Shown here one piece after another: positions 7,147 to 31,879 of a DNA stretch of 64,000 nt. The notes beneath the pieces are model-generated. The model had not been told where the DNA came from, ran no database searches, and saw only the letters and a list, made by a program, of their open reading frames with translations. The DNA comes from Gemmatimonadota bacterium (GTDB taxonomy: Bacteria; Gemmatimonadota; Gemmatimonadetes; Palauibacterales; Palauibacteraceae). Every line of letters starts with the position of its first letter. Within the stretch, counting starts at the first letter, position 1. The stretch is from contig OY282356.1 of assembly GCA_958295535.1 (NCBI GenBank), positions 2,404,378-2,468,377 on the forward strand, in the 5' to 3' direction. The position numbers were made by a program, and so were the translations under genes.

Positions 7147-7293
7147 GAGTCTTCGGACAGTTCTGCCCGAGGGGAGCCTGCCCGACGCCGGACTATGGCC
7201 TCCTGGCCGGCTGAGGGCGTGCCGGCCGAGAGCGTGCCCGTTGAGAGGGCGCCCCGTTGAGAGGGCACCGACTGATAGGGGCCGGCTAAGAGG

Positions 7294-8529
7294 GTGCCGC
7301 CTGTAAAAGTCCTGCGGGGGACGCCATTCCACGAGCGCACCGCCCCGATCTGCCAGACCGAGCAGTGGCGGCGGTGGGCCGGCTACCTCGCCGCCGCCTC
7401 GTACGAGCCTTCCCACGAGCGGGAATACCACGCAATCCGGTCGGCAGCGGCGCTAATCGACGTCTCCCCGCTCTACAAGTACCGCATATCCGGCACCGAT
7501 GCGGCGGCGCTGATGAACCGCGTCGTGACGCGGAATGTGGAGAGGCAGGAGGTAGGCCAGGTCTACTACGCGCCGTGGTGCGACTCCGCCGGCAAGGTGC
7601 GCGACGATGGCACGCTCCAACGGCTCGGCGAGTCGGATTTCCGGCTGACTTCGGCGGCGCCCACTCTCAAGTGGCTGCACGACAGCGCCGGGGGCCTGGA
7701 TGTAGAGCTGGAAGAGGAGAGCGAAGCGCTGGGCGCGCTGGCGCTCCAGGGACCGCTATCGCGGACCATCCTCCAGCAGATTGCCGATGGGGATGTCGAT
7801 GGGCTCCGCTACTTCGGAGTGATGACGGCGAAGGCGGGCGGCGTGCCAGTCACCATCTCGCGCACGGGATACACCGGCGATCTGGGATACGAGATCTGGG
7901 TGGATGCCGGGGATGCCATCGCTCTCTGGGACGCGCTCGTAGACGCGGGGACGCCATTCGGCCTCGCGCCAGCGGGGCTGATCGCCCTCGACATGGCGCG
8001 GGTGGAGGCCGGTCTGCTGCTCGTGGACGTAGACTACATTCCGGCGCACCGAGCGGTCATCGAGGCGCAGAAGTCATCGCCATACGAGCTGGGTCTCGGT
8101 TGGGCGGTAGCGCTGAACGGTTCCAACTACACCGGGCGGGCGGCCCTCCGCGCCGAAGCATCGAGTCCGTCGGAGTGGCGCTTTCGGGGGATAACCGTGA
8201 GCTGGGACTCTCTTGAGCAACTTTACTCAGTAGTACACCTTCCTCCTCAACTTCCTGCAGCGGTTCTCCGGGAGAGTGTCCCCATCTACAGCGGCAGCCG
8301 CCAAGTGGGCTACGCCACCAGCCGCGGATGGTCGCCCACGCTCAAGAGGTATCTGGGACTGGCCCACCTGCAAGCGGATTTTGCGGAGCCGGGCGCCGAA
8401 CTGGAGATCGAAGTCACGGTCGAGCACCGGCGGCAGCGCGCGCGCGCCACCGTGGCGAAGACGCCCTTCTTCGATCCCAGCCGGAAGCGCTCGGCCGCTG
8501 GCGCGCCCACGGAGAAGAAGCGGCGGTGA
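7294..8529 (+). CDS. Aminomethyltransferase-family protein (GcvT/DmdA-like, folate-binding).
   Basis: 411 aa with GcvT-family hallmarks (LIDVSPLYKYRISG, YTGDLGYEIWV, C-terminal barrel). Its stop overlaps the next start (GTGA). Confidence 0.75.
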   Translation: MPPVKVLRGTPFHERTAPICQTEQWRRWAGYLAAASYEPSHEREYHAIRSAAALIDVSPLYKYRISGTDAAALMNRVVTRNVERQEVGQVYYAPWCDSAGKVRDDGTLQRLGESDFRLTSAAPTLKWLHDSAGGLDVELEEESEALGALALQGPLSRTILQQIADGDVDGLRYFGVMTAKAGGVPVTISRTGYTGDLGYEIWVDAGDAIALWDALVDAGTPFGLAPAGLIALDMARVEAGLLLVDVDYIPAHRAVIEAQKSSPYELGLGWAVALNGSNYTGRAALRAEASSPSEWRFRGITVSWDSLEQLYSVVHLPPQLPAAVLRESVPIYSGSRQVGYATSRGWSPTLKRYLGLAHLQADFAEPGAELEIEVTVEHRRQRARATVAKTPFFDPSRKRSAAGAPTEKKRR

Positions 8530-10115
8530 GCAAAGCGAACCAGTACGACGCCATCGTCGTGGGCGGAGGGCACAACGGGCTGATCAATGCGGCGTACTTG
8601 GCCCGGGCCGGACTCCGCGTCGTCGTCCTGGAGCGCCGACACCTCGTCGGCGGAGCCGCGGTCACCGAAGAGATATTCCCAGGATACAAGTACTCGGTGG
8701 CGTCTTACGTCGTGAGCCTGCTCCGTCCGTCCATCATCCGCGATCTGGAGTTGGTGAAGCACGGACTGACGATCCTGCCGCTCGAAAGCACGATCACGCC
8801 CCTTCCCGGCGGCGACTATCTGGGCCGCTGGGCCGATCACGACCAGACGCGCCGCGAACTCTACCGGCACTCGGCCCGGGACGCCGATGCGTACGAGGAC
8901 TTCGGCACATTGATGTTCCAGCTGGCGCGGGCCGTGAAACCCCTGCTCGGCGTCGTCCCGCCCAACGTGGCCTCGCCCGGCCTGCGCGATCTGAGGACCC
9001 TGCTGTCGCTCGGCAAACACGGGCGGAGCCTGAGTCGACAGGAGGTGCACGCGCTATTCAAGCTGATGACGATGAGCGCAGCCGACTTCCTCGACGAATG
9101 GTTCGAGTGCGATCCGCTCAAGGCCACCATGTCGGCCAGCGGCATCATCGGCACCTTCCTGGGACCCCGCTCGCCGGGCACGGCCTACGTCCTTCTCCAC
9201 CACTACATCGGCGAGATCGACGGGGTGTTCCGCGCGTGGGGCTTCGCCAAAGGGGGGAATGGCATGGTCAGCGAGGCGATAGCGTCCTCCGCGCGGTCGC
9301 GCGGGGCCGAAATCCGCACCAACGCCGGCGTGGAGAGCGTTCTCGCGAAGAACGGGAGAGTTCAGGGCGTCGTCCTGGAGGGCGGAGACACGCTGACGGC
9401 GCCAACCATCGTCTCGGGAGTCGATCCGAAACGCACCTTCCTGCAGCTGCTCGACCCCGGCGAGCTGCCGGAGGACTTGACTGCTTCGATCCGGCGCTTC
9501 CGCATCCGCGGATCGTCGGGCAAGGTGAATCTGGCTCTCGGCGAGCTGCCCGAATTCTCATGTTTGCCTGGCCGCGGAGCGCACCACCGCGGAGCCTTCT
9601 CGATCAGCCCGAGCGTGAACTACCTGGAGCGCGCGTACGACGACGCGAAGTACGGCGGATTCTCCAGAAAGCCCTATATGGACATCCTCATCCCGTCGGC
9701 CATCGACCCCGGGATGGCGCCTCCGGGCCGCCACGTGATGTCGATCTTCGTCCAGTACGCCCCGTTCGACATCGAGGGAGGCTGGGACGACGCGAAGCGC
9801 GACGCCTTCGGCGATGCGGTCGTGGACACGCTATCGGAGTACGTGCCGAATCTCCGGGACGCGATCCTTCACCGGCAGGTGCTTACGCCACTGGACATGC
9901 AGGAAGAGATGGGGCTCACCGAAGGCAACATCTTCCACGGGGAGCTCTCGTTGCAGCAGCTCTTCTTCTTCCGTCCGGCGCCGGCATGGTCCGACTACCG
10001 CACGCCCATTCGCGGATTCTACCAGTGCGGGTCGGGGACTCACCCCGGCGGCGGCGTCTGCGGCGCGCCGGGGCGGCTGGCGGCCCGGGAGATCCTGAAG
10101 GACCTGTATAAGTGA
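8526..10115 (+). CDS. FAD/NAD(P)-binding oxidoreductase, phytoene-desaturase (CrtI, COG1233) family, paralog 1.
   Basis: GTG start gives [38 protein letters not shown], a Rossmann GxGxxG fold. About 529 aa. C-terminal motif [13 protein letters not shown]. The upstream frame in the ORF track is run-through. Confidence 0.75.
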   Translation: [529 protein letters not shown]

Positions 10116-22855: not shown

Positions 22856-24583
22856 TCAGGGCGACCGGAGCGTCGGGTAGGCAATCCCTAGCTGCTCCAG
22901 ATACGTCTCGTACTTCGTCTCGTCGAAGTAGAACGGCTCGATCAGCGGCCTGAAGCGCGCCATGATGTCGACATTCAGGTCTATCGGAGGAGGGTCGTCC
23001 GCCGTGATAAACGGCTGGTACTGCTGGTCCTTGCCCTGCACCTCCCGAAAGTACGTCCACGCGTCCTCGACGAGATCGGGATCAAGGAAGAGCTTGAGCG
23101 CCGTCCGCGCCAGCACCTTGGCCCCGGCTACCGCCCCTTTATGCGCGATAGGGGTCGCCATCGCGATCGCGTTCGACCAGTGATGACCCTGCAACCCCGG
23201 AATGTTCGACGGGAAGCGCAGGGTCACCGTCGGCACGGTCCAACCGATGTCCCCGATGTCGTCCGATCCGCCGCTCCGCCGGTCGTTCTCGCCCTCCGGC
23301 GGCGTCCCGATGCCATCCAGTTCGGTGTTCAGCCCAGGGGTCGATTCGTTCCCGACCTCGGCCTGGACGGCACGCGCCAGCGCCTGGTCGTCGTCATCCC
23401 ACTCGGGAAGGCCGACATGCTCGATCTGCTCCCACATGGTCTCCGCGATGACCTTGTTGAAGTGCCGCGGAGCCGCCGCGCCCCGCACCCTGTAGGTCAT
23501 CTCGGTGTCCGTCATCAGCGCCGCGCCCTCGGCGATCTTCTTCGCGACATCGTAGTTCCGCAGGATGCCGTCGAAGTCCATCTCGCGAATGTAGTACCAG
23601 ACAGTCGCGATCTGCGGCACGACGTTGGGCTGGTCCCCTCCGTCCGGGATGATGTAGTGGGACCGCTGGTTGGGGTGGAGGTGTTCCCGGCGGAAGTTCC
23701 ACCCGATGTTCATCAGCTCGACCGCATCGAGCGAACTGCGCCCCCGCCACGGCGAACCGGCGCTATGCGCAGCCTCCCCCGAGAAGGCGAACTCGACGGA
23801 GACGAGACCTGTCCCGTTCGCCTGTCCCCAGCTCACGCCGAGGTTGTTCCCCACATGCGTGAAGATCACCAGGTCGATGTCTTCGAAGTAGCCGTCGCGT
23901 ACGAACCACGCCTTGCTCCCGAGCTGCTCTTCGGCGACGCCCGGCCATAGAACCAGAGTCCCTTCGATCCCCTCCTCCCGCATGACCTTCTGAAGGGCGA
24001 GCGCCGCCGTGACGTTCACCGCCTGGCCGGAGTTGTGGCCCTCTCCGTGGCCCGGAGCTCCGGGTACGAGAGGCTCGTGCCACGCCACCCCCGGCTTCTG
24101 GTTCGCCTTCGGAATGCCGTCGATGTCGCTGCCGAACGAAATCACCGGCGATCCCGACCCCCACCGGGCGAACCACGCTGTCGGAATGCCCGCCGAACCC
24201 CGCTCCACTTGCCACCCGTTCTCTTCGAGGATGCCCGTGACGTAAGCGGATGTCTCGAACTCCTGCTGCCCCAGTTCGGAGAACGAGAAGATCTTGTCCA
24301 CCATCACCTGCGCGAGTTTCGCCATCGAGGCTACCTCGGACTCCACCCGGTCCAGCGCCTGTTGGCCGGACAGCGAGCCGGGCACGGAAGCGAGAGCTGC
24401 CGCAATGACGAGGGCGCATGCCGGAGACGCGACGGAAGTCGGAAGCGGCGGCCAGCTCCAGCCTTGCACGCGCGAGCATCTCTTGCTGGCCTTGCTGCTC
24501 CTGCTGGTCGTGCTGCTCTTGCTGGTCGTGCTGCTCTTGCTGGTCGGACATTCCCTGTCGTGCGATGTCTTGAAGAAAAGCAT
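22856..24583 (-). CDS. M20-family metallopeptidase/amidohydrolase (AbgB/aminobenzoyl-glutamate utilisation-like), secreted. Start is uncertain.
   Basis: Conserved M20 metal-binding region (HEPLVPGAPGHGEGHNSG, dimerisation domain). The N-terminus contains a 21-bp tandem repeat. Signal-like ACALVIAAALASVPG. Confidence 0.7.
   Translation of the reverse strand: MLFFKTSHDRECPTSKSSTTSKSSTTSRSSKASKRCSRVQGWSWPPLPTSVASPACALVIAAALASVPGSLSGQQALDRVESEVASMAKLAQVMVDKIFSFSELGQQEFETSAYVTGILEENGWQVERGSAGIPTAWFARWGSGSPVISFGSDIDGIPKANQKPGVAWHEPLVPGAPGHGEGHNSGQAVNVTAALALQKVMREEGIEGTLVLWPGVAEEQLGSKAWFVRDGYFEDIDLVIFTHVGNNLGVSWGQANGTGLVSVEFAFSGEAAHSAGSPWRGRSSLDAVELMNIGWNFRREHLHPNQRSHYIIPDGGDQPNVVPQIATVWYYIREMDFDGILRNYDVAKKIAEGAALMTDTEMTYRVRGAAAPRHFNKVIAETMWEQIEHVGLPEWDDDDQALARAVQAEVGNESTPGLNTELDGIGTPPEGENDRRSGGSDDIGDIGWTVPTVTLRFPSNIPGLQGHHWSNAIAMATPIAHKGAVAGAKVLARTALKLFLDPDLVEDAWTYFREVQGKDQQYQPFITADDPPPIDLNVDIMARFRPLIEPFYFDETKYETYLEQLGIAYPTLRSP
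24484..24546. repeat. 21-bp tandem repeat x3 (TGCTGGTCGTGCTGCTCTTGC) at the 5' end of the M20 peptidase ORF.
   Basis: Read directly. It encodes SKSSTT repeats on the minus strand. The first copy is degenerate. Confidence 0.7.
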
Positions 24584-24665
24584 TGCCGGCCTCTTGGAAA
24601 ATGGTTTGCAGATGCAGCGCGGACTCACCCGGCAGCAGCCGATCAGAGTGGCCCGGAGAGACTGT

Positions 24666-25370
24666 TCAGGACCCAGCGTTGCAAGCGGGCTCGTTCACGC
24701 GCCGGTAGTCCTCGACGAAAACATCCGTCTTCTCCGCCACGGCCGCGAGCACCGGTGCGGACTCTCCACCGTGCACCCCCATGTGCACGGCCTCCCAGGT
24801 AAGCCCGAATCCTGTCTGGCCGCTCCGCTGGTCGAGTACCCACTTGTGAAAGCCGACTCCGACCCTGAACGACGGTCCTGTCACATGAATGTTCACCATC
24901 AGGTGCGCTTCGGGGGATTCGCCAGTCGGCGCAGCATCCGGCGTTGCATCGGGCGCTGTCTCGGCCGGGGCGTGGATGGTGGACAGATCGGATGTGCCAA
25001 GCAGCTGGGCCGCCCGCAGCCTGTCATCCACCAACTGCCGCACGCTTTGTCCGGTCAGGCCCTCCAGCGGCCCAGCGTGATCGGTCAGGTCCTCGAGAGC
25101 GCCACCGGCATCGATATAGGCGAGGGACCCGATCCGTTCGCATTCGTTGAAGAGCTGGAAACGTTCGAGGGCCGATCCCTCCGCCGCCACATGCGCGACC
25201 GCGGATTCCTCCGTCTCGCCGGCTGTCGGGGACTCTGCGGCGGCGGCAACCGGGGACCGACTCCCACCAGCAGTTGGGGACTCGGCGTCGACCGCCGGGG
25301 ACTCGGTGCTGGGCGGAGCGCACGACACAAGGAAGCAAGCTAGAGCGCACAGCCCGCAGGAAGCGGTCAC
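24666..25370 (-). CDS. Secreted lipoprotein of unknown function, paralog A. Non-ATG start is likely.
   Basis: Lipobox-like CALACFLVSCAPP. C-terminal two-thirds align with the neighbouring ORF (RFxLxNxC, SRLRAAxL, WxxGxHGG, FVEDYRRVNEPACN). The ORF-track ATG at 25526 overlaps the upstream gene. Confidence 0.5.
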   Translation of the reverse strand: MTASCGLCALACFLVSCAPPSTESPAVDAESPTAGGSRSPVAAAAESPTAGETEESAVAHVAAEGSALERFQLFNECERIGSLAYIDAGGALEDLTDHAGPLEGLTGQSVRQLVDDRLRAAQLLGTSDLSTIHAPAETAPDATPDAAPTGESPEAHLMVNIHVTGPSFRVGVGFHKWVLDQRSGQTGFGLTWEAVHMGVHGGESAPVLAAVAEKTDVFVEDYRRVNEPACNAGS

Positions 25371-25402
25371 GGTACGCAGCGCTTCGCCGATGATCCAGAC
25401 TC

Positions 25403-25888
25403 CTATCCGCAGGCGTCTTCGTTGATGCGCAAGTACTCCAGCACAAAGTGGTCTAAGCGTTCTGATAGGTTCTGCATTATGAAGCCCGCATCTCCGCCGT
25501 GCATTCCATAACGGCCCCTCTGCCAAGTAACGGCCCTGCCACTTCGTTCAGATGCAGAATCGTATAGGGCCTTATTGAACTGAAGAGTTATGCTGTACGC
25601 GCCTTGTTCGCGGTAGTCCGATACAAGCACCCCGACATTCACATACAGATAGGGAGTCGCGTCAGCATCGTACAGCCGAGCAGCTCGGAGGCGGCTTTCC
25701 GCCAACACTTGTACACGCTCCCTGGTCAGCCCTATCGCGTCTCCCTCTTCAGGAACGTCCGCGACTACAAGGTCTATCTGTGCGCACGCGTTGTATAGTC
25801 GGAACCGGTTGAGCGAGTCGGCTTGCGCCGCTGATCGGCTAGGTAGCGCGACGGCCAAGACAGCAACGATGACGAACACAGTTCGCAT
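25403..25888 (-). CDS. Secreted protein of unknown function, paralog B.
   Basis: Signal peptide MRTVFVIVAVLAVALPSRSAAQA. Shares conserved blocks with paralog A. Ends EYLRINEDACG. Confidence 0.5.
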   Translation of the reverse strand: MRTVFVIVAVLAVALPSRSAAQADSLNRFRLYNACAQIDLVVADVPEEGDAIGLTRERVQVLAESRLRAARLYDADATPYLYVNVGVLVSDYREQGAYSITLQFNKALYDSASERSGRAVTWQRGRYGMHGGDAGFIMQNLSERLDHFVLEYLRINEDACG

Positions 25889-25954
25889 TAGCGCTCCTTC
25901 CAACAGCCGGGCCGGGAAACGACGCAGCCCCGCACGCTCGACCAGCCCGAAAAG

Positions 25955-26039
25955 CGGAGGGGGTGGGATTCGAACCCACGTGGGCTTGTCGCCCGCCGGT
26001 TTTCAAGACCGGTGCATTCAACCGCTCTGCCACCCCTCC
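25955..26039 (-). tRNA. tRNA-Ser (anticodon TGA), long variable arm.
   Basis: Reverse complement GGAGGGGTGGCAGAGCGGTTGAATGC(…)CTTGAAA(…) has a long variable arm and GGTTCGAATCC T-arm. About 85 nt. Confidence 0.75.
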
Positions 26040-26125
26040 ATGCAACCGCTCTGCCACCCCACTTGGCAACCGTCCTGTCACCCTTTTATGGAGATGCGAG
26101 CCGGACATCATCGGCTACGAAAACA

Positions 26126-26198
<73 letters not shown>

Positions 26199-26337
26199 AC
26201 GCCAAGTGGGCCTCGATCGTGCTGTATCGCGAACTCTCCAGCGCGTGGATGCTGCTGCCTTCCACGGCTGGCTATCCGCTGGCTGGCTATCCGCCGCATT
26301 TGCTGGCTACGCCGCTGCACTTCGGGTGATGATCTCA

Positions 26338-26411
26338 TGGGGCGGGAGGGACTCGAACCCCCGACTTCTGCGATGTGAACGCAGCGCTCTAGCCAACTGA
26401 GCTACCGCCCC
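26338..26411 (-). tRNA. tRNA-Val (anticodon CAC).
   Basis: Reverse complement GGGGCGGTAGCTCAGTTGGCTAGAGCGCTGCGTTCACATCGCAG(…)GGTTCGAGTCC(…). Anticodon loop TTCACAT. Confidence 0.7.
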
Positions 26412-26540
26412 TCCTCCACGCGGCCCGCGCCAAGCCGCCGAACCGACTTTACCCTGCCGCCGCTAACCGCGCCACTCCGGAGACCCCCCGCCCGCACTGC
26501 CAACCTCTACACATCGGACGGCTCCAGCCCCTCGCGTCAT

Positions 26541-27545
26541 TCAGTTGCGCCACGGCATGAAGAGCCTGGAAAGAGAATCCACATTGTCCTCGACGAATTC
26601 CCGGAAAGACTTCTCCGTGTTCGCGCGCGTCGAAATGTAACACTGCTGACATGTGTTCTGTTTCGTAAAGCGCTCCAGCATGTCCTCCTGGCGGTCGAAG
26701 TAGGCCATCACCATGGCGCACGGCGTAAGCCGCCCGTCGGGATTGATCACGAGAAAGCGGCGCCCCGCCTGGCAGCCGGGAATCCCCTCCTCCGTCAGAA
26801 AGCGATGGAACTTCCACAGAACGCGCGGCGTGGTGTACACCGGATATCCGGCGCTACGCAGGTCTATTACCTCCTGGATGCTGTCGGCCAGCCCGTCGAG
26901 GCCGTCCCCTTCGATGAGACCGCTCCTGTCCTGCACTCGGAGGTGGGTGTAGACGGAGAAGTTGATCGGGACGCCCCAATCCTTCGCGACCCGCACCATG
27001 TCGCCGATATCCTTGTAGTTCCACGCGGTGATGCAGACGTTGAGAAGGATGTCGTCTTTGTCGTCGCTGGTCCGCGCGATCTCCGGCACCACCCTGGCCA
27101 TCCGGTCGAAGAGGCCGGGGATGCGGCGAAACTCGTCGTGTCGTTCGTCCGGGAAGTCGAGCGACGTGGACAGCTGGTGCATTCCGCTGTCCTTGAGTCT
27201 GAAGAAGCGCTCGGGCGTCAGATTCGACGCGTTAGTAACGACGACCATCCACGGCAGGCCGCCTTTGTTCGTCATCGCATCGACGATGTCGTAGACGTCC
27301 CCGCGCGCCAGCGGCTCGCCTCCCGACGCGTGCGAGACCACGGGCCGAAGCTCCCGGCAGATCGCGGCGTAGTCCTCCGCGCCCAGGCGCTCTTCCTTGA
27401 TCGGTCCGCCCCAGTTGCAGTGCCAGCAGTTTGCGGTACAGGCGTGGGTGATCTCGAATGACACCGAGAGCGGCTTGTCCTGGAATCGGTTCCGGATTCC
27501 GCGCGCCAGCATGCGTACGGCCATCCCCCCAGAAATGTTCGGCAT
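26541..27545 (-). CDS. Radical SAM enzyme with a C-terminal SPASM/twitch-like Cys cluster.
   Basis: CxxxCxxC motif (HACTANCWHC) near the N-terminus. C-terminal CQAGRRFLVINPDGRLTPC(…)CQQC auxiliary-cluster motif. 334 aa. Confidence 0.8.
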   Translation of the reverse strand: MPNISGGMAVRMLARGIRNRFQDKPLSVSFEITHACTANCWHCNWGGPIKEERLGAEDYAAICRELRPVVSHASGGEPLARGDVYDIVDAMTNKGGLPWMVVVTNASNLTPERFFRLKDSGMHQLSTSLDFPDERHDEFRRIPGLFDRMARVVPEIARTSDDKDDILLNVCITAWNYKDIGDMVRVAKDWGVPINFSVYTHLRVQDRSGLIEGDGLDGLADSIQEVIDLRSAGYPVYTTPRVLWKFHRFLTEEGIPGCQAGRRFLVINPDGRLTPCAMVMAYFDRQEDMLERFTKQNTCQQCYISTRANTEKSFREFVEDNVDSLSRLFMPWRN

Positions 27546-27689
27546 CCGTCGCCCTCTCTCTTGACGCTTGTCGCTCGGACCCGGTGGGGGCCCCGCTTAT
27601 CCCGCAGCTTCGACAGTACTACGCGGCCCCGTCTCTATCGGGGGCAGCCCTCTGCCTCTCGGGTGGCCGCTACCGGCCTCGCGCTCCAG

Positions 27690-27960
27690 ACCAACTCCAA
27701 GCCTTGAGCGCCTGAATCACCTGCCAGCCTCGAGCGCCCGGATCAACTTCCAGCCCCTGCGTTCCGGATCAACTTCCAGCTTCGCGCCCCCAGAATCACC
27801 TGCGAGCCGCACGCTCCAGAATCAACTCCAAGCCTTGCGCCTCGGGTCAACTCCCAGCCTTGAGCACCCGGATCAACTCCCAGCCTCGCGCCCCCAGAAT
27901 CACCTGCGAGCCGCACGCTCCAGAATCAACTCCAAGCCTTGCGCCTCGGGTCAACTTCCC
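27690..27960. repeat. Degenerate tandem array, about ten 26-27-bp units (consensus CCAGCCTYGCGCCCCCRGAATCAMCTY), between the radical SAM and DedA genes. It includes a roughly 100-bp segmental duplication.
   Basis: Read directly. Units are contiguous with no unique spacers, so this is not a CRISPR array. The plus-strand ORF across it translates to proline/serine repeats and is probably non-coding. Confidence 0.7.
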
Positions 27961-28739
27961 CGCTGGACAGTCGACTTGCCAGCCCTCCGGGATTTGAACC
28001 GCCTCCAGGCGCCGGGGGCCGCCTTGACCAGATAAAGTCCGAAGATCACCACGACGCTAGCTATCAGGACCCAATTCGGGATGCCGAAAGTCTTGCCGAG
28101 AAGGGCGAGAAGGTAATAGCGGGGATACCGCGCGACCACCAGGGCGGTCAGCCACTTCCACATCGGATAGCGGATCGAGAAGACGAGAAACTTGAATGGG
28201 AAGAAGGGAATCGGCGTAAAGCCGGTGACGATGATGGTGGCGAAGGGCCACCTCATGAAGAGCGCGATGGCTTTGCGGTAGAACTTCTTCTTCTTGTAAG
28301 CCTGGATGTTCTGGAGATTCAGGACGGGGACGAAGACGGCGTGGTCCATTATCCCGGCGGCAACCGTGCCCAAGGTCGCCCACAGCGCCGCCAAGTGGAG
28401 GTCGGCGACTTTTCCGAAGTAGATGAGGACGGGCTCGTGGGGGAAAATCGAGATCGCCGTGTTGGCCGGGATCGAATAGAAGGCCAGAAAGATGTAGCTG
28501 TCTGGCTGGAAGTCCCGGAGCATCAGAATGCCGGTCGTGACGCCGGTCACGATCATCAGAGCGCCCATCACCCACACCAGCGGGCCCAGCTGCGTCTGGC
28601 CGGTCTCTTCCGGTCCGATAGTGTCCGGGATCTCGTGCTCGCCTGTATTATTGCGCTGCAATCGTCCCTCCGGCGTATACTCGTGTATTGGGTAGTCCGG
28701 CCCCGCTTGGTCTCTCTGGTTCGGCTCAGCTCGGGACAT
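27951..28739 (-). CDS. DedA-family (VTT/SNARE-associated domain) integral membrane protein.
   Basis: 262 aa. Multi-TM. Characteristic DedA core (FGKVADLHLAALWATLG(…)RYPMWKWL(…)ARYPRYYLL). Proline-rich cytoplasmic N-terminus. Confidence 0.7.
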   Translation of the reverse strand: MSRAEPNQRDQAGPDYPIHEYTPEGRLQRNNTGEHEIPDTIGPEETGQTQLGPLVWVMGALMIVTGVTTGILMLRDFQPDSYIFLAFYSIPANTAISIFPHEPVLIYFGKVADLHLAALWATLGTVAAGIMDHAVFVPVLNLQNIQAYKKKKFYRKAIALFMRWPFATIIVTGFTPIPFFPFKFLVFSIRYPMWKWLTALVVARYPRYYLLALLGKTFGIPNWVLIASVVVIFGLYLVKAAPGAWRRFKSRRAGKSTVQRGS

Positions 28740-29092
28740 GATGCACGTTAGACTGACCGAGGCGGAGGAGTTCTTGCCGGAGTTGCAAGCCCAAGAGCAG
28801 TGTAAGCTACGCTATTGCTGGGCGCGTAGCTTGCGCCGGTCTCTGGCCGCCGACCGGCGGCGCTCGTGTACGCTTGGCGTGGGGAACGCGCCTGCGGCGG
28901 GAACGCGCCTGCGGCGGGAACGCGCGTGCAGTTTTGGTTGGAGTAGCCTGGATTGGGGTAGTTTGGCCGAGAGAGCGACGCATGGCGGGGAGAGCAACCC
29001 ATGCCGGCCGCGGGCGGAGTAGCGCGAGCTGCCAGCTCGAGAGTCGCGTAAGCCGGACGGTCCGGCAAGCTGGCCGGCCCCGGCGGGAGTTC

Positions 29093-29404
29093 ATGAGGAA
29101 GGTTGCCGTGAAAGAGAAGAGAGCGGGTTGCCCGGAGTGCGGCGAGGCAATCGGAAGCGCCGATCAGACGTGCCAGAAGTGCGGAGCGGCTCTGTCGTAC
29201 GGCCCGGGCGAAGCGGATGTGTGCTGCGCCGTCTGCGAGAGCGCCATGAGCGCGTATGCGGAGAGCTGCCCCGAGTGTGGCGAGACGGGCTACCCGGCGC
29301 TTCGCCCTCGCAAGGGCCGCAAATGGAAGGGGTCGAAGCCGGAGGGGCTGCCGAGAGAGGCATCGGGGCCGGACGCAGCCGCCGGGGGATCCGGGGCCAG
29401 CTGA
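29093..29404 (+). CDS. Small double zinc-ribbon protein.
   Basis: Internal ATG with GGGAG RBS. Four CxxC pairs (CPECG, CQKCG, CAVC, CPECG). Basic C-terminus. The upstream part of the ORF-track frame is probably not translated. Confidence 0.5.
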   Translation: MRKVAVKEKRAGCPECGEAIGSADQTCQKCGAALSYGPGEADVCCAVCESAMSAYAESCPECGETGYPALRPRKGRKWKGSKPEGLPREASGPDAAAGGSGAS

Positions 29405-29497
29405 GGCGCCGGGGAGTCCGCCCGGAGCTTCACGAACCACAACGGCCTGGCCGACGCCGCCGCGCGAGCGGAGACACTGCGTGAGTGGAGACTCCGG

Positions 29498-30394
29498 GTG
29501 AACGGCGGCACGGGCGGGCGGCTCGACCGCACGTTCATCGTCCTCCACGAGCCGCAGGACCTCGTCAACATCGCGCTCGCCATCCGGGCGATGAAGAATC
29601 TGGGCATGTCGCGCCTCCGGCTAGTCGAGCCGGCGGAGTTCGACCCATGGCGTATCGGCGGGATCGCTCACGACACCCAGGACATCGTCGACCGCGTGGA
29701 GCTGTTCGACGACCTGCCGGCCGCCCTGGCCGACGCCAGCTACGTCCTGGGGGCGACGGCCCGACGCCGTTCGGCGCGCCACGACTGGTGGAGTCCGGCG
29801 GAGGCGGCGGAGGAGCTCGTTCCTCGCGAGGAACCGCTGGCCGTCGTCTTCGGCAGAGAGGACCGGGGCCTGTCGAACGACGCCCTCGACCTGTGCCACG
29901 GTCTCGTATGCATCCCCGCCAACCCCGACCACAGCTCGATGAACCTGGCCCACGCGGCCGTCATCATCATGTACGAACTTCGGAAGGTGGCGCTGGGACC
30001 CGCCCGGCAGAGCTCGCGCGACATCGCCTACAAGAAACGTCGACAGTCTCCTCCCGCCCAACACCGGGAGCTCGAGGCATTCTTCGACAAGTGGCAGCGG
30101 GCCATGGAAGAGATCGGACTGTTCCACGGGATCGATCCGGTTCCGAAGATGCGCAGCTTCCGAAAGATTTTTCAGAGAGCGAAGCTCGACCGCCGAGAAA
30201 TCGGCCTTCTGCTGGCCACGGCCTACGAAGTGCTGCACTTCGGGGAGAGAGAGAAGAAGAGGGCCGCCGACCGGGCGAGCCTTGCCACCCTTGGTCCGGG
30301 CGCGGGCCGCGTCGTGGACGAGCAGTCGTCCTCTGGCGGCGAAGCCCCGGATTCCGATCCTGGCTCAGATTCGGCTTCGCAACCTCGTCACTAG
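29498..30394 (+). CDS. trmJ: SpoU-family tRNA 2'-O-methyltransferase, TrmJ-like.
   Basis: N-terminus (IVLHEPQDLVNIALAIRAMKNLGMSRLRLVEP) and SPOUT knot motifs (VFGREDRGLSNDALDLCH, IPANPDHSSMNLAHAAVIIMYEL) match TrmJ. GTG start. Confidence 0.7.
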   Translation: MNGGTGGRLDRTFIVLHEPQDLVNIALAIRAMKNLGMSRLRLVEPAEFDPWRIGGIAHDTQDIVDRVELFDDLPAALADASYVLGATARRRSARHDWWSPAEAAEELVPREEPLAVVFGREDRGLSNDALDLCHGLVCIPANPDHSSMNLAHAAVIIMYELRKVALGPARQSSRDIAYKKRRQSPPAQHRELEAFFDKWQRAMEEIGLFHGIDPVPKMRSFRKIFQRAKLDRREIGLLLATAYEVLHFGEREKKRAADRASLATLGPGAGRVVDEQSSSGGEAPDSDPGSDSASQPRH

Positions 30395-31879
30395 GTCTTC
30401 GTTCGACTTCGTCTGACGCATCAGACTCAGGACTTCCTGCATGGCGTCGACCGACGGGTAGCTACTCAACTCTCGCCGCATCGCGCGGGAGACGGCCAGC
30501 TCGTTTTCCTCGAGCAACCGCTCTTCGCGCCGCGTCGCGCTCGAGTTGAGGTCGATCGCGGGGAAGATGCGGCGATCCGAAAGTTCGCGGTCAAGCACAA
30601 GCTCGCTGTTGCCCGTCCCTTTGAATTCCTCGAAGATCACTTGGTCCATTCGCGACCCGGTATCCACCAGCGCAGTCGCGATGATCGTCAGCGAGCCGCC
30701 TCCCTTGCTGGCCGGAACGGAGCGGGCGCTCCCGAAAAAGCGCTTCGGCTTCTCGAGCGAGTTGGCGTCGATTCCTCCGGTCAGAGTTCGTCCGCTCCCC
30801 TCCTCGATGATGTTGTACGCGCGAGCCAAACGGGTTATCGAATCCAGAATCAGAACCACGTCCTCTCCCATCTCGGCCAGCCGCCGGGCCCGCTCGAGGG
30901 TGATCTCGGCGACCTGCGTGTGGCGCAGCGCGGGATAGTCGAAGCTTGACGCGGCGACTTCGCCTATGCCGATGGACTCCATCTCCGTCACCTCTTCCGG
31001 GCGTTCGTCCACGAGGAGGATGAAGATCTTGCAGTCGGCGTGATTGCAGGCGATGCCCTTGGCGATGGATTGCAACACCATCGTCTTGCCGGCTTTGGCG
31101 GGCGCGACTATCAGGGCGCGCTGGCCCGTCCCCAGCGGGCATACGAGGTCGATGATCCGGTTGGTGTAGTCGGGCTCGTTGTTGCGTTCCAGATCGCATT
31201 CCAGCCGTAGACGGCGGTCCGGGTGTTGAGCGCTCAGCCGGCTGAATTGTCGTCTATGTCCCAACTCTCCCGGCGGTTGGCCGTTCACGGAGTGGAGGTG
31301 TTTCAGAGGCGGGCTCTTGCCGGGGCGCGGCGGGCGGCCCGGCTGGCCGCATATCTCGTCCCCGGTCCGCAGATCGTACCGCCCCACGATCTTCGGGCTG
31401 ACGTAGATGTCGTCATCGCTCGGGGTGTAGCTGGCGTACCGGCGGCGCACAAAGCCTGTCCCCGTGGCTAGCCGTTCGAGAAGACCGAGGTACGCATCCT
31501 TCGGCGCATCGGGCATATCTTGCGCCGGCGGCGCACCCGGGGCCGGCGACATCGACGGCGGCGGTTGACCCCCGGCTTGGCGCCGATTGCGCGGGCGACG
31601 GCGATTGCGGTTCTTGCCGCGCCCCGGCGCCCGCCCGGCGCCCGGGTTCTTTCTGGCGCGAGGCCGACCCTTTCCGCCGCGAGGCGGGCCGCGACGGGAG
31701 TTGGCGCTACCCGATCCCTTGCCCCCGCCGGAGCGGTTGCCGCCGGAGCCGCTGCCGCCGCCCTGGCCCTGCCTGCCGGCCGAGCGATTGCCGCCGGAAC
31801 GACTTTGCTTGCCGCCGGGGCCGCGACCGCTGGTCCGGCCACGCTCGCCGCTACCGTGGCCACGCGTCTGGCCGGTCAA
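30365..31879 (-). CDS. rho: Transcription termination factor Rho, with an N-terminal Arg/Gly-rich low-complexity extension of about 110 aa.
   Basis: OB-fold RNA-binding region (DIYVSPKIVGRYDLRTGDEICG), Walker A (PAKAGKTMVLQSIA), Walker B (FILLVDERPEEVTEM) and the C-terminal RecA-like core are all present. The N-terminus is RG/RGG-rich. Confidence 0.85.
   Translation of the reverse strand: MTGQTRGHGSGERGRTSGRGPGGKQSRSGGNRSAGRQGQGGGSGSGGNRSGGGKGSGSANSRRGPPRGGKGRPRARKNPGAGRAPGRGKNRNRRRPRNRRQAGGQPPPSMSPAPGAPPAQDMPDAPKDAYLGLLERLATGTGFVRRRYASYTPSDDDIYVSPKIVGRYDLRTGDEICGQPGRPPRPGKSPPLKHLHSVNGQPPGELGHRRQFSRLSAQHPDRRLRLECDLERNNEPDYTNRIIDLVCPLGTGQRALIVAPAKAGKTMVLQSIAKGIACNHADCKIFILLVDERPEEVTEMESIGIGEVAASSFDYPALRHTQVAEITLERARRLAEMGEDVVLILDSITRLARAYNIIEEGSGRTLTGGIDANSLEKPKRFFGSARSVPASKGGGSLTIIATALVDTGSRMDQVIFEEFKGTGNSELVLDRELSDRRIFPAIDLNSSATRREERLLEENELAVSRAMRRELSSYPSVDAMQEVLSLMRQTKSNEDLVTRLRSRI

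Follow-up and report, generated by a model that had tools for sequence, protein, structure and literature searches.

A degenerate 26-bp tandem array, probably a young minisatellite, between the two genes of a conserved VTT–radical SAM pair in Gemmatimonadota

A tandem array between two co-directional genes

The stretch of 64,000 nucleotides analysed here, referred to as the window in the following, comes from a Gemmatimonadota bacterium of the genus Candidatus Palauibacter in the Palauibacteraceae (GenBank assembly GCA_958295535.1, contig OY282356.1, positions 2,404,378 to 2,468,377), and the closest relatives of its proteins are found in Candidatus Palauibacter and other Gemmatimonadota. On its minus strand, a gene for a VTT-domain membrane protein of the DedA superfamily is followed by a gene for a radical SAM enzyme, and most of the 405-nt spacer between them (27950..27546) is occupied by a tandem array of degenerate repeats (Table 1). 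Three tRNA genes adjoin the radical SAM gene, and a gene for a double zinc-ribbon protein diverges from the VTT gene at a distance of 353 bp from the VTT start; both of these neighbours had been correctly recognized in a preliminary description of the locus, which was made from the sequence alone.

Table 1. Features of the locus, in positions of the window
Feature	Position	Strand	Details
VTT-domain membrane protein gene (DedA superfamily, YqaA/COG1238-like)	28739..27951	-	262 aa; open reading frame (ORF) and PF09335, E 5.7e-5
Tandem array, 11 units of 25-27 bp	27959..27670	-	Tandem Repeats Finder (TRF) and manual parsing
Array unit 4 (GTTGATCCGGGTGCTCAAGGCTGGGA)	27852..27877	-	26 bp; in the window, not in the same-species contig L081 (MAFFT)
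Unique, unrepeated leader of the radical SAM gene	27546..27669	-	124 nt
Radical SAM gene	26541..27545	-	334 aa; PF04055, E 2.5e-12
tRNA-Val (cac)	26411..26338	-	tRNA scan; Rfam
tRNA-Gly (ccc)	26198..26126	-	tRNA scan; Rfam
tRNA-Ser (tga)	26039..25954	-	tRNA scan; Rfam
Double zinc-ribbon gene	29093-29404	+	103 aa; PF12773, E 5e-7

The repeats are readily detected with TRF, which reports a period of 26 bp and 10.3 copies between 27676 and 27944. Manual parsing of the minus strand resolves them, from 27955 down to 27670, into units of 25, 26, 27, 26, 25, 26, 27, 26, 26, 26 and ~26 bp, which follow the pattern G(T/G)TGAYYC-nGGnGCGn-nRGGCTKGRA and each open with G(T/G)TGA. Above this basic period, TRF finds a higher-order period of 104 bp, corresponding to four units (27734-27956, 2.2 copies, 90% matches, score 367), and the two 92-nt blocks 27764-27855 and 27868-27959, which lie 104 bp apart, are 97% identical. 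The unit motif GGCTKGNAGKTGAYYC occurs nine times in the window with at most one mismatch, compared to 0.10 occurrences expected from shuffled sequences, and all nine copies lie on the minus strand inside the array. Such an array goes well beyond what chance would produce. No further copy of the unit was found elsewhere in the 64-kb window.

The array begins at the stop codon of the VTT gene (TGA, 27953..27951), which falls within the first repeat unit. The repeats cover about 290 bp of the spacer, and the remaining 124 nt next to the radical SAM gene are unrepeated and include a Shine-Dalgarno-like GAGGG (27556..27552), 6 nt before the ATG. The transcribed strand of the array is G-rich, with a GC skew of -0.31 on the plus strand. 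The preliminary description had seen a real array, and had rightly set it apart from CRISPR, given that the units are contiguous and lack spacers; its about ten units of 26-27 bp filling a spacer of some 400 bp, however, have to be replaced by 11 units of 25-27 bp in about 290 of 405 bp.

Variation of the array within and between species

An exact look-up of the radical SAM protein led to another strain of the same species, represented by the 3.05-Mb contig ERZ19489113 s124.ptg000131l (L081), which we compared to the window over positions 23541-30560. Its identity to the window is 98.7% on the side of rho, the SpoU methylase and the zinc-ribbon gene, 99.2% in the VTT gene, 99.2% in the unique leader, 99.7% in the radical SAM gene, 99.3% in the tRNA region and 100% further downstream, but 95.3% in the array (12 mismatches in 255 aligned positions). 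Since the flanks differ at 37 of 6737 positions, the divergence of the array within the species is about nine times that of its surroundings, and this excess of substitutions is found against all flanks (Fisher p = 1.2e-7) as well as against the non-coding flanks only (p = 1.3e-4). The two strains also differ in the number of units, 11 in the window and 10 in L081, and the MAFFT alignment accounts for this with one clean gap of 26 columns at unit 4 of the window. Furthermore, units 2 and 6 of the window are identical to each other, whereas five positions differ between their counterparts in L081. This suggests that the window lineage has recently undergone a duplication or gene conversion and that homogenisation is ongoing. 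Gain or loss of whole units together with fast drift is the behaviour of a variable number tandem repeat (VNTR).

Other species were represented by 80 genome loci of Gemmatimonadota that hold a relative of the radical SAM gene. In the 71 loci in which it was measurable, the distance from the VTT stop to the radical SAM start is between -14 and +135 bp; three loci gave meaningless values, as the extension of the ORF ran past the stop, and two of them (L015 and L016) clearly show a 4-bp junction. Most Palauibacter junctions read ...GGAGGGGTTGATCGGATG, i.e. a Shine-Dalgarno-like motif, the stop TGA, four bases and the ATG. In many other Gemmatimonadota the two genes appear to overlap, with an estimate of -7 that rests on an extrapolated radical SAM start. 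The unit pattern matched in none of the 80 loci, and blastn with the spacer of the window, unique leader included, revealed no similarity in any of them; likewise, a blastn search of plasmids and phages with the spacer gave no match. The 405-nt spacer of the window is unique among the species compared, and the array, which is present in both strains and missing in other species, must therefore be older than the split of the strains and younger than the species. The preliminary description had suggested that the array may act as a regulatory sequence; its absence from other species and its variability in the closest relative, at the same gene content, speak against this reading in the way that the description itself had foreseen.

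We also looked for homologous arrays in a metagenome collection. A scan with a three-anchor pattern returned 39 stretches, all of them unrelated tandem repeats that merely contain GAGTTGAYYC. An array of 26 copies of a 25-bp unit (GGGCTTGGAGTTGATTCTGTTAGTT) in L085 (2345-3004; JAAUYG010092915.1) has the 18-mer GGCTTGGAGTTGATTCTG in common with units 2 and 6 of the window, which is 7 nt past what the search pattern forced. Given that it lies on a contig of 43% GC, has a different unit and probably comes from a different organism, we rejected it as a relative of the window array and judged the similarity a coincidence. A separate observation concerns the VTT–radical SAM spacer of L020, L021, L023 and L026, in which a GC-rich motif (CCGCTCG.CGG...GGCCG(C/G)GGGCGGTTCGATACATGGGG) is conserved about 50-90 nt upstream of the radical SAM start. 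This motif may form a stem-loop; it was not found in the window or in the other Palauibacter loci.

In our view, the array is best explained as a young, lineage-specific minisatellite, or VNTR, in the spacer of a conserved two-gene VTT–radical SAM operon, a reading to which we assign a probability of roughly 0.8. Replication slippage or unequal recombination would have expanded some 26 bp at the 3' end of the VTT gene, after which a 104-bp block of four units would have been duplicated, or gene-converted, recently. The operon is probably still transcribed as one unit. In the relatives, the 4-bp or overlapping junctions fit translational coupling, of which such close or overlapping junctions are the typical architecture (PMC12548453). 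In the window, the VTT stop and the radical SAM start are 405 nt apart, so that translation of the radical SAM gene would have to begin at its own Shine-Dalgarno site, GAGGG, instead of by coupling. The only plausible effect of the array is thus one on expression, and it is most likely neutral or mildly modulating; judged from the analyses described below, the array is neither an RNA element nor a coding sequence. As such, it is one more intergenic VNTR and matters little in itself. It could nevertheless be of use in typing strains of this sponge-associated Palauibacter species, and it amounts to an experiment of nature, in which genes that are normally adjacent have come to lie 405 nt apart.

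A functional RNA was considered as one alternative; the preliminary description had thought of a structured leader, an attenuator or a small RNA. The array might form such a leader, attenuator or riboswitch for the radical SAM gene, directly upstream of which it lies, or sequester an RNA-binding protein as a GGA-rich sponge of the CsrB/RsmZ type, and a manual count indeed finds about 12 GGA motifs in the 290 nt of the transcribed strand. The region 27530-27990, however, folds no better than shuffled sequences in the sense direction (z = -0.35) and worse in the antisense direction (z = +1.98), and the consensus fold of the aligned units has five pairs, -0.96 kcal/mol and no compensatory pair. 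A search of 25000-30000 against Rfam at E values up to 1 returned only the three tRNAs and weak matches overlapping them, with none in 27546-27960, and the number of terminator-like hairpins, 2 found compared to 1.8 expected, is at chance level. In addition, the array is missing from all other species with the same operon and, within its own species, evolves about nine times as fast as its flanks. These results make a functional RNA very unlikely, in whichever of the proposed forms.

Alternatively, the array could contain an internal promoter or operator from which the radical SAM gene is expressed independently of the VTT gene. There is a precedent in the MIRU-containing senX3-regX3 spacer of mycobacteria (PMC4213456; MIRU, mycobacterial interspersed repetitive unit), the TTGAY in each unit resembles a -35 hexamer, and with a spacer of 405 nt the coupling of the relatives is lost. 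Yet no -10-like element follows the TTGAY, and a scan of 26300-29200 with the sigma-70 consensus, which may not fit the promoters of Gemmatimonadota, found no site where 0.4 were expected. Moreover, the relatives manage without the spacer, and the copy number of the array differs between strains. A promoter in the array appears quite improbable to us.

The open reading frames of the array offer a third possibility, a translational relay as in MIRUs, in which the stop of each mini-ORF overlaps the next start (TTGA/GTGA), ribosomes are passed from the VTT stop toward the radical SAM gene and coupling is kept. The VTT stop TGA does overlap a TTG, and it is followed by four mini-ORFs of 35, 35, 9 and 16 aa that are linked by NTGA overlaps and each have a GGAG-like or GGAA-like motif in front. 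This property of the chain is retained in L081 (13, 22, 9, 18, 9 and 16 aa), and for MIRUs, a -4 overlap is described that couples an internal ORF with the adjacent gene (PMC12548453). The chain, however, stops at a TAG (27672..27670), 124 nt short of the radical SAM ATG, and no overlapping start comes after it. It also arises automatically, because every stop codon on the transcribed strand of the ten regular units sits in G(T/G)TGA, with the result that each mini-ORF stop overlaps a TTG or GTG. Furthermore, the GGAG motifs stand at zero spacing from the start codon, too close for a Shine-Dalgarno role, and both the lengths of the mini-ORFs and their peptides differ between the strains. We hold such a relay to be improbable; with its peptides unconserved and its end short of the radical SAM gene, the chain is regarded as a by-product of a unit that was born at a TTGA stop.

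Other coding potential was considered for both strands. On the minus strand, the mini-ORFs of the array differ completely between the two strains of the species, and we rejected them as coding for their lack of conservation in L081. On the plus strand, a 155-aa ORF (27568-28035) runs antisense through the whole array into the 3' end of the VTT gene. It failed the GC3/GC2 codon-position filter that was applied to the ORFs of 14-42 kb, and is treated as a by-product of the stop-poor, C-rich strand.

Several points weigh against the array being nothing more than a VNTR. The variation in copy number rests on two genomes of the species, the window and L081, and the array could conceivably act as a promoter or alter the stoichiometry of the VTT and radical SAM proteins. 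That the units descend from the ancestral junction of VTT stop and Shine-Dalgarno motif is a conjecture based on similarity seen by eye (AAGCGTTGGAGGGGTTGATCGG vs AAGGCTTGGAGTTGATCCGG), and when the loci were scanned with an nhmmer profile of the units, the stop/Shine-Dalgarno junction did not stand out from background in any of them. Lastly, the phylum sample contains few arrays this large, only five with a period of at least 12 and at least 5 copies in 835 kb, and the retention of this one in both strains could reflect some benefit.

The VTT–radical SAM gene pair and its neighbourhood

While the array was found in one of the species compared, the gene pair that it separates is conserved across the sampled Gemmatimonadota. 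A VTT gene lies immediately upstream of the radical SAM gene and on the same strand in 73 of the 80 Gemmatimonadota loci, and the wider arrangement of the window recurs as well, with the zinc-ribbon gene in 71 loci, the SpoU methylase in 59 and rho in 49. In nearly all of these 71 loci, the zinc-ribbon homolog is the next gene upstream of VTT and has the opposite orientation, and tRNA-Val and tRNA-Gly follow the radical SAM gene in most of the 22 loci that were checked. By its synteny, the locus is a conserved core-genome block and not an accessory cluster.

In one case, the two genes are joined in a single ORF. The 568-aa protein P0123 (JGI 3300017613, Ga0186781_1168439; L122 445-2151) is a natural VTT–radical SAM fusion, of which residues 10-199 are 43% identical to the VTT protein of the window (E 3e-55) and residues 236-559 are 42% identical to its radical SAM enzyme (E 9e-90). 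Pfam identifies both VTT_dom, with 40.9 bits and thus above the cut-off, and Radical_SAM in it, and its gene is followed by genes for RtcB and cation efflux. It is the sole fusion among the 150 best representatives, a single sequence that could be a frameshift artefact. Apart from this fusion, no VTT partner was found for distant homologs of the radical SAM enzyme (37-43% identity, for example in Poribacteria), the neighbours of which are varied. Based on the synteny and the fusion, the pairing of radical SAM enzyme and membrane protein, to which the preliminary description had drawn attention, is supported as a real module, the two proteins of which would be functional or physical partners.

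The assignment of the membrane protein draws on its family. With 24 bits, the VTT protein of the window stays under the PF09335 cut-off of 33.9, but 28 of the 28 family members tested match this domain, with a best E value of 2.7e-10, and its initial classification as a DedA/VTT-type protein is probably right. Relatives are named 'VTT domain-containing protein' or, at JGI, 'membrane protein YqaA'. An AlphaFold2 (AF2) model is all-helical with a confidence score (pLDDT) of 81, and a Foldseek search with it against the PDB, in a set that is without a solved DedA fold, gave no significant match. YqaA corresponds to COG1238, a DedA subfamily without known function, for which the transport of uncharged or positively charged lipids has been proposed (PMC10127716); for DedA/VTT proteins more generally, lipid-flipping roles are described (PMC10127716, PMC10193950, PMC8386813).

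The downstream protein is a radical SAM enzyme, as originally stated, with the CxxxCxxC motif formed by C36, C40 and C43 within its PF04055 domain. Across 21 family members, the invariant cysteines are these three, C171, C258, C276, C299 and C302. The last four form the pattern C258-x17-C276-x22-C299-x2-C302, which could fit the layout of a twitch domain, a truncated SPASM in which cysteines on either side of a β-hairpin and a CxxC motif ligate one [4Fe-4S] cluster, and suggests one auxiliary cluster of the twitch-like kind. The C-terminal cysteine cluster of the preliminary description is borne out, but its designation as SPASM is not: the enzyme reaches 14.8 bits with PF13186 (cut-off 21.5) and 18.8 bits with TIGR04085 (cut-off 27), and the latter match covers only positions 1-34 of the 93 of the profile.

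Searches for a closer affiliation of the enzyme were made at the level of sequence and structure. None of the NCBIfam equivalogs for AhbD, NirJ, PqqE, MftC, MoaA, anSME, HpnH and Tes was reached; AhbD came first, with 76 bits against a threshold of 500, the others staying far under theirs, and the enzyme does not resolve to a well-known family of this kind, a possibility that had been raised at the outset. The best PDB matches of its AF2 model (pLDDT 78.8, poor over residues 296-313) in Foldseek are BlsE, SkfB, PqqE, SuiB and MoaA, at template modelling (TM) scores of about 0.55, with BlsE, SkfB and MoaA being twitch enzymes, and a sequence search of the PDB agrees; for BlsE (7vob), the E value is 5.6e-13 by fold and 1e-12 by sequence. 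A PADLOC match to prokaryotic viperin (pVip) was dismissed, as only the radical SAM core is covered (28.5 bits, residues 28-185), and PADLOC gave no match for either the VTT or the zinc-ribbon protein. The radical SAM enzyme matches no characterised family and has only generic twitch/SPASM similarity. Its own family is small, with 51 clusters at 50% identity and E ≤ 1e-30 among 1.8 billion representatives.

Several of these structural matches are peptide maturases, and the preliminary description had proposed, as an alternative to a lipid- or cofactor-modifying function, a system for ribosomally synthesized and post-translationally modified peptides (RiPPs), whose precursor would be too small for an ORF track of 60 aa. 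A precursor peptide would then be encoded in or near the array, and the fold of the enzyme does resemble SkfB, SuiB and PqqE, among others, just as there are small ORFs in the array. In most relatives, however, the spacer is too short for a gene, measuring 4 bp in most Palauibacter and amounting to an apparent overlap in many others, and the ORFs of the array are not conserved even within the species. Pfam finds no PqqD domain or RiPP recognition element (RRE) in the enzyme, which has only about 25 residues before CxxxCxxC and falls short of the SPASM models, and the neighbours are housekeeping genes (rho, SpoU methylase, tRNAs), without a protease or exporter among them. We therefore regard a RiPP-like system as extremely unlikely.

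Most likely, the VTT–radical SAM pair constitutes a radical SAM system that is anchored in the membrane and also acts there. A membrane lipid would be a candidate for its substrate by analogy with the known roles of the DedA superfamily. A literature search for a link between radical SAM and DedA proteins in Gemmatimonadota yielded nothing relevant. One can go further and imagine an obligate membrane-anchored VTT–radical SAM enzyme that modifies a membrane lipid or polyprenyl carrier in a radical reaction not yet described; the VNTR would then be a naturally occurring variant in which the stoichiometry of the two proteins is uncoupled. We put this forward tentatively and think that it is unlikely to be right in this form; if true, it would provide the first function for a member of the COG1238 DedA subfamily. 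In any case, the pair gives a testable handle on a DedA subfamily of unassigned role, to which it is tied by the synteny in the sampled Gemmatimonadota and the one fusion.

Some further features of the neighbourhood concern the tRNA genes and smaller repeats. The distance from tRNA-Gly to tRNA-Ser, 86 bp in the window, is about 2 kb in L001, L004, L007 and L013 (tRNA-Gly at ~7240-7310, tRNA-Ser at ~9180-9610); judging from these positions, an insertion or deletion beside tRNA-Ser separates the window lineage from other Palauibacter. Just 5' of tRNA-Ser in the window (minus strand, 26015-26083; TRF period 24, 2.7 copies), there are two more degenerate tandem copies of its first ~24 nt (GGAGGGGTGGCAGAGCGGTTG...). 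This duplication could be due to slippage, or an element targeting the tRNA could have left it behind as a scar. In L002, a 48-bp unit repeated 5.5 times (9486-9754) includes the 3' half of tRNA-Ser (GGGTTCGAATCCCACCCCCTCC) and is located near the tRNA-Ser site as placed in the close relative L001 (9189-9274), L002 itself being without a tRNA scan; these repeats may be att-like duplications from repeated integrations. Tandem repeats are generally frequent in the window, with 4.4 loci per 10 kb, about three times the 1.5 of the orthologous Palauibacter loci, while other Gemmatimonadota have 1.15; this points to a genome prone to duplications and is in line with the VNTR reading of the array. 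The smaller ones include a 17-bp unit with 2.8 copies in the divergent VTT/zinc-ribbon promoter region (28882-28929), a 15-bp unit with two copies between tRNA-Val and tRNA-Gly (26266-26294) and an 18-bp unit with 3.7 copies (24480-24546) close to the 5' end of a long ORF (22856..24628).

Comparison with known systems

On the protein level, the radical SAM enzyme shares the partial TIM-barrel core and a cysteine-rich C-terminal domain that opens with a C-x12-G-x4-C hairpin with the twitch/SPASM enzymes BlsE, SkfB, PqqE, SuiB, MoaA and anSME. It is nevertheless distant from them, at TM scores of about 0.55 and sequence identities of 14-21%. A full SPASM domain has seven cysteines and two auxiliary clusters; here there are four cysteines, for which one auxiliary cluster is expected, and none of the six enzymes is known to have an obligate VTT membrane partner. 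Its own partner probably shares the VTT domain with COG1238/YqaA, as well as the JGI name of its relatives, the subfamily assignment being made here from the names of these relatives. In the literature, a single-domain architecture is given for about 99% of COG1238 proteins, and a link to radical SAM is not mentioned (PMC10127716), whereas the VTT genes considered here are partnered by a radical SAM gene, with which one of them is fused.

Among repeat systems, CRISPR arrays are likewise built of short direct repeats, comparable in length and located in non-coding DNA, but the units described here are contiguous and degenerate, without spacers or a palindromic core, and there are no cas genes nearby. 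CsrB/RsmZ sponge RNAs also present repeated GGA motifs over a few hundred nucleotides. The array differs from them in that it has no hairpins presenting these motifs, no promoter or terminator of its own, no conservation past one species and no match in Rfam.

The closest analogue of the array would be the mycobacterial MIRU-VNTRs. The units of MIRUs are 46-101 bp long, compared to 26 bp here. Both systems consist of tandem units of tens of base pairs that start at a gene boundary between co-directional genes of an operon, both contain mini-ORFs with overlapping stops and starts (NTGA), and both vary in copy number between strains, with two to three units in senX3-regX3 (PMC4213456) and 10 or 11 here. 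In the 64-kb window and the 80 relative loci, there is no sign of the dispersal known from MIRUs. In contrast to MIRUs, the ORF overlap of the array is found at the upstream stop only and not at the start of the radical SAM gene; moreover, there is no sequence relationship, and the two belong to different phyla. The generic minisatellites or VNTRs of bacterial intergenic regions, finally, share with the array its head-to-tail degenerate units, the higher-order repeat, a divergence above that of the flanks and the gain or loss of whole units. Nothing essential sets the array apart from them; it is merely large for the phylum sample.

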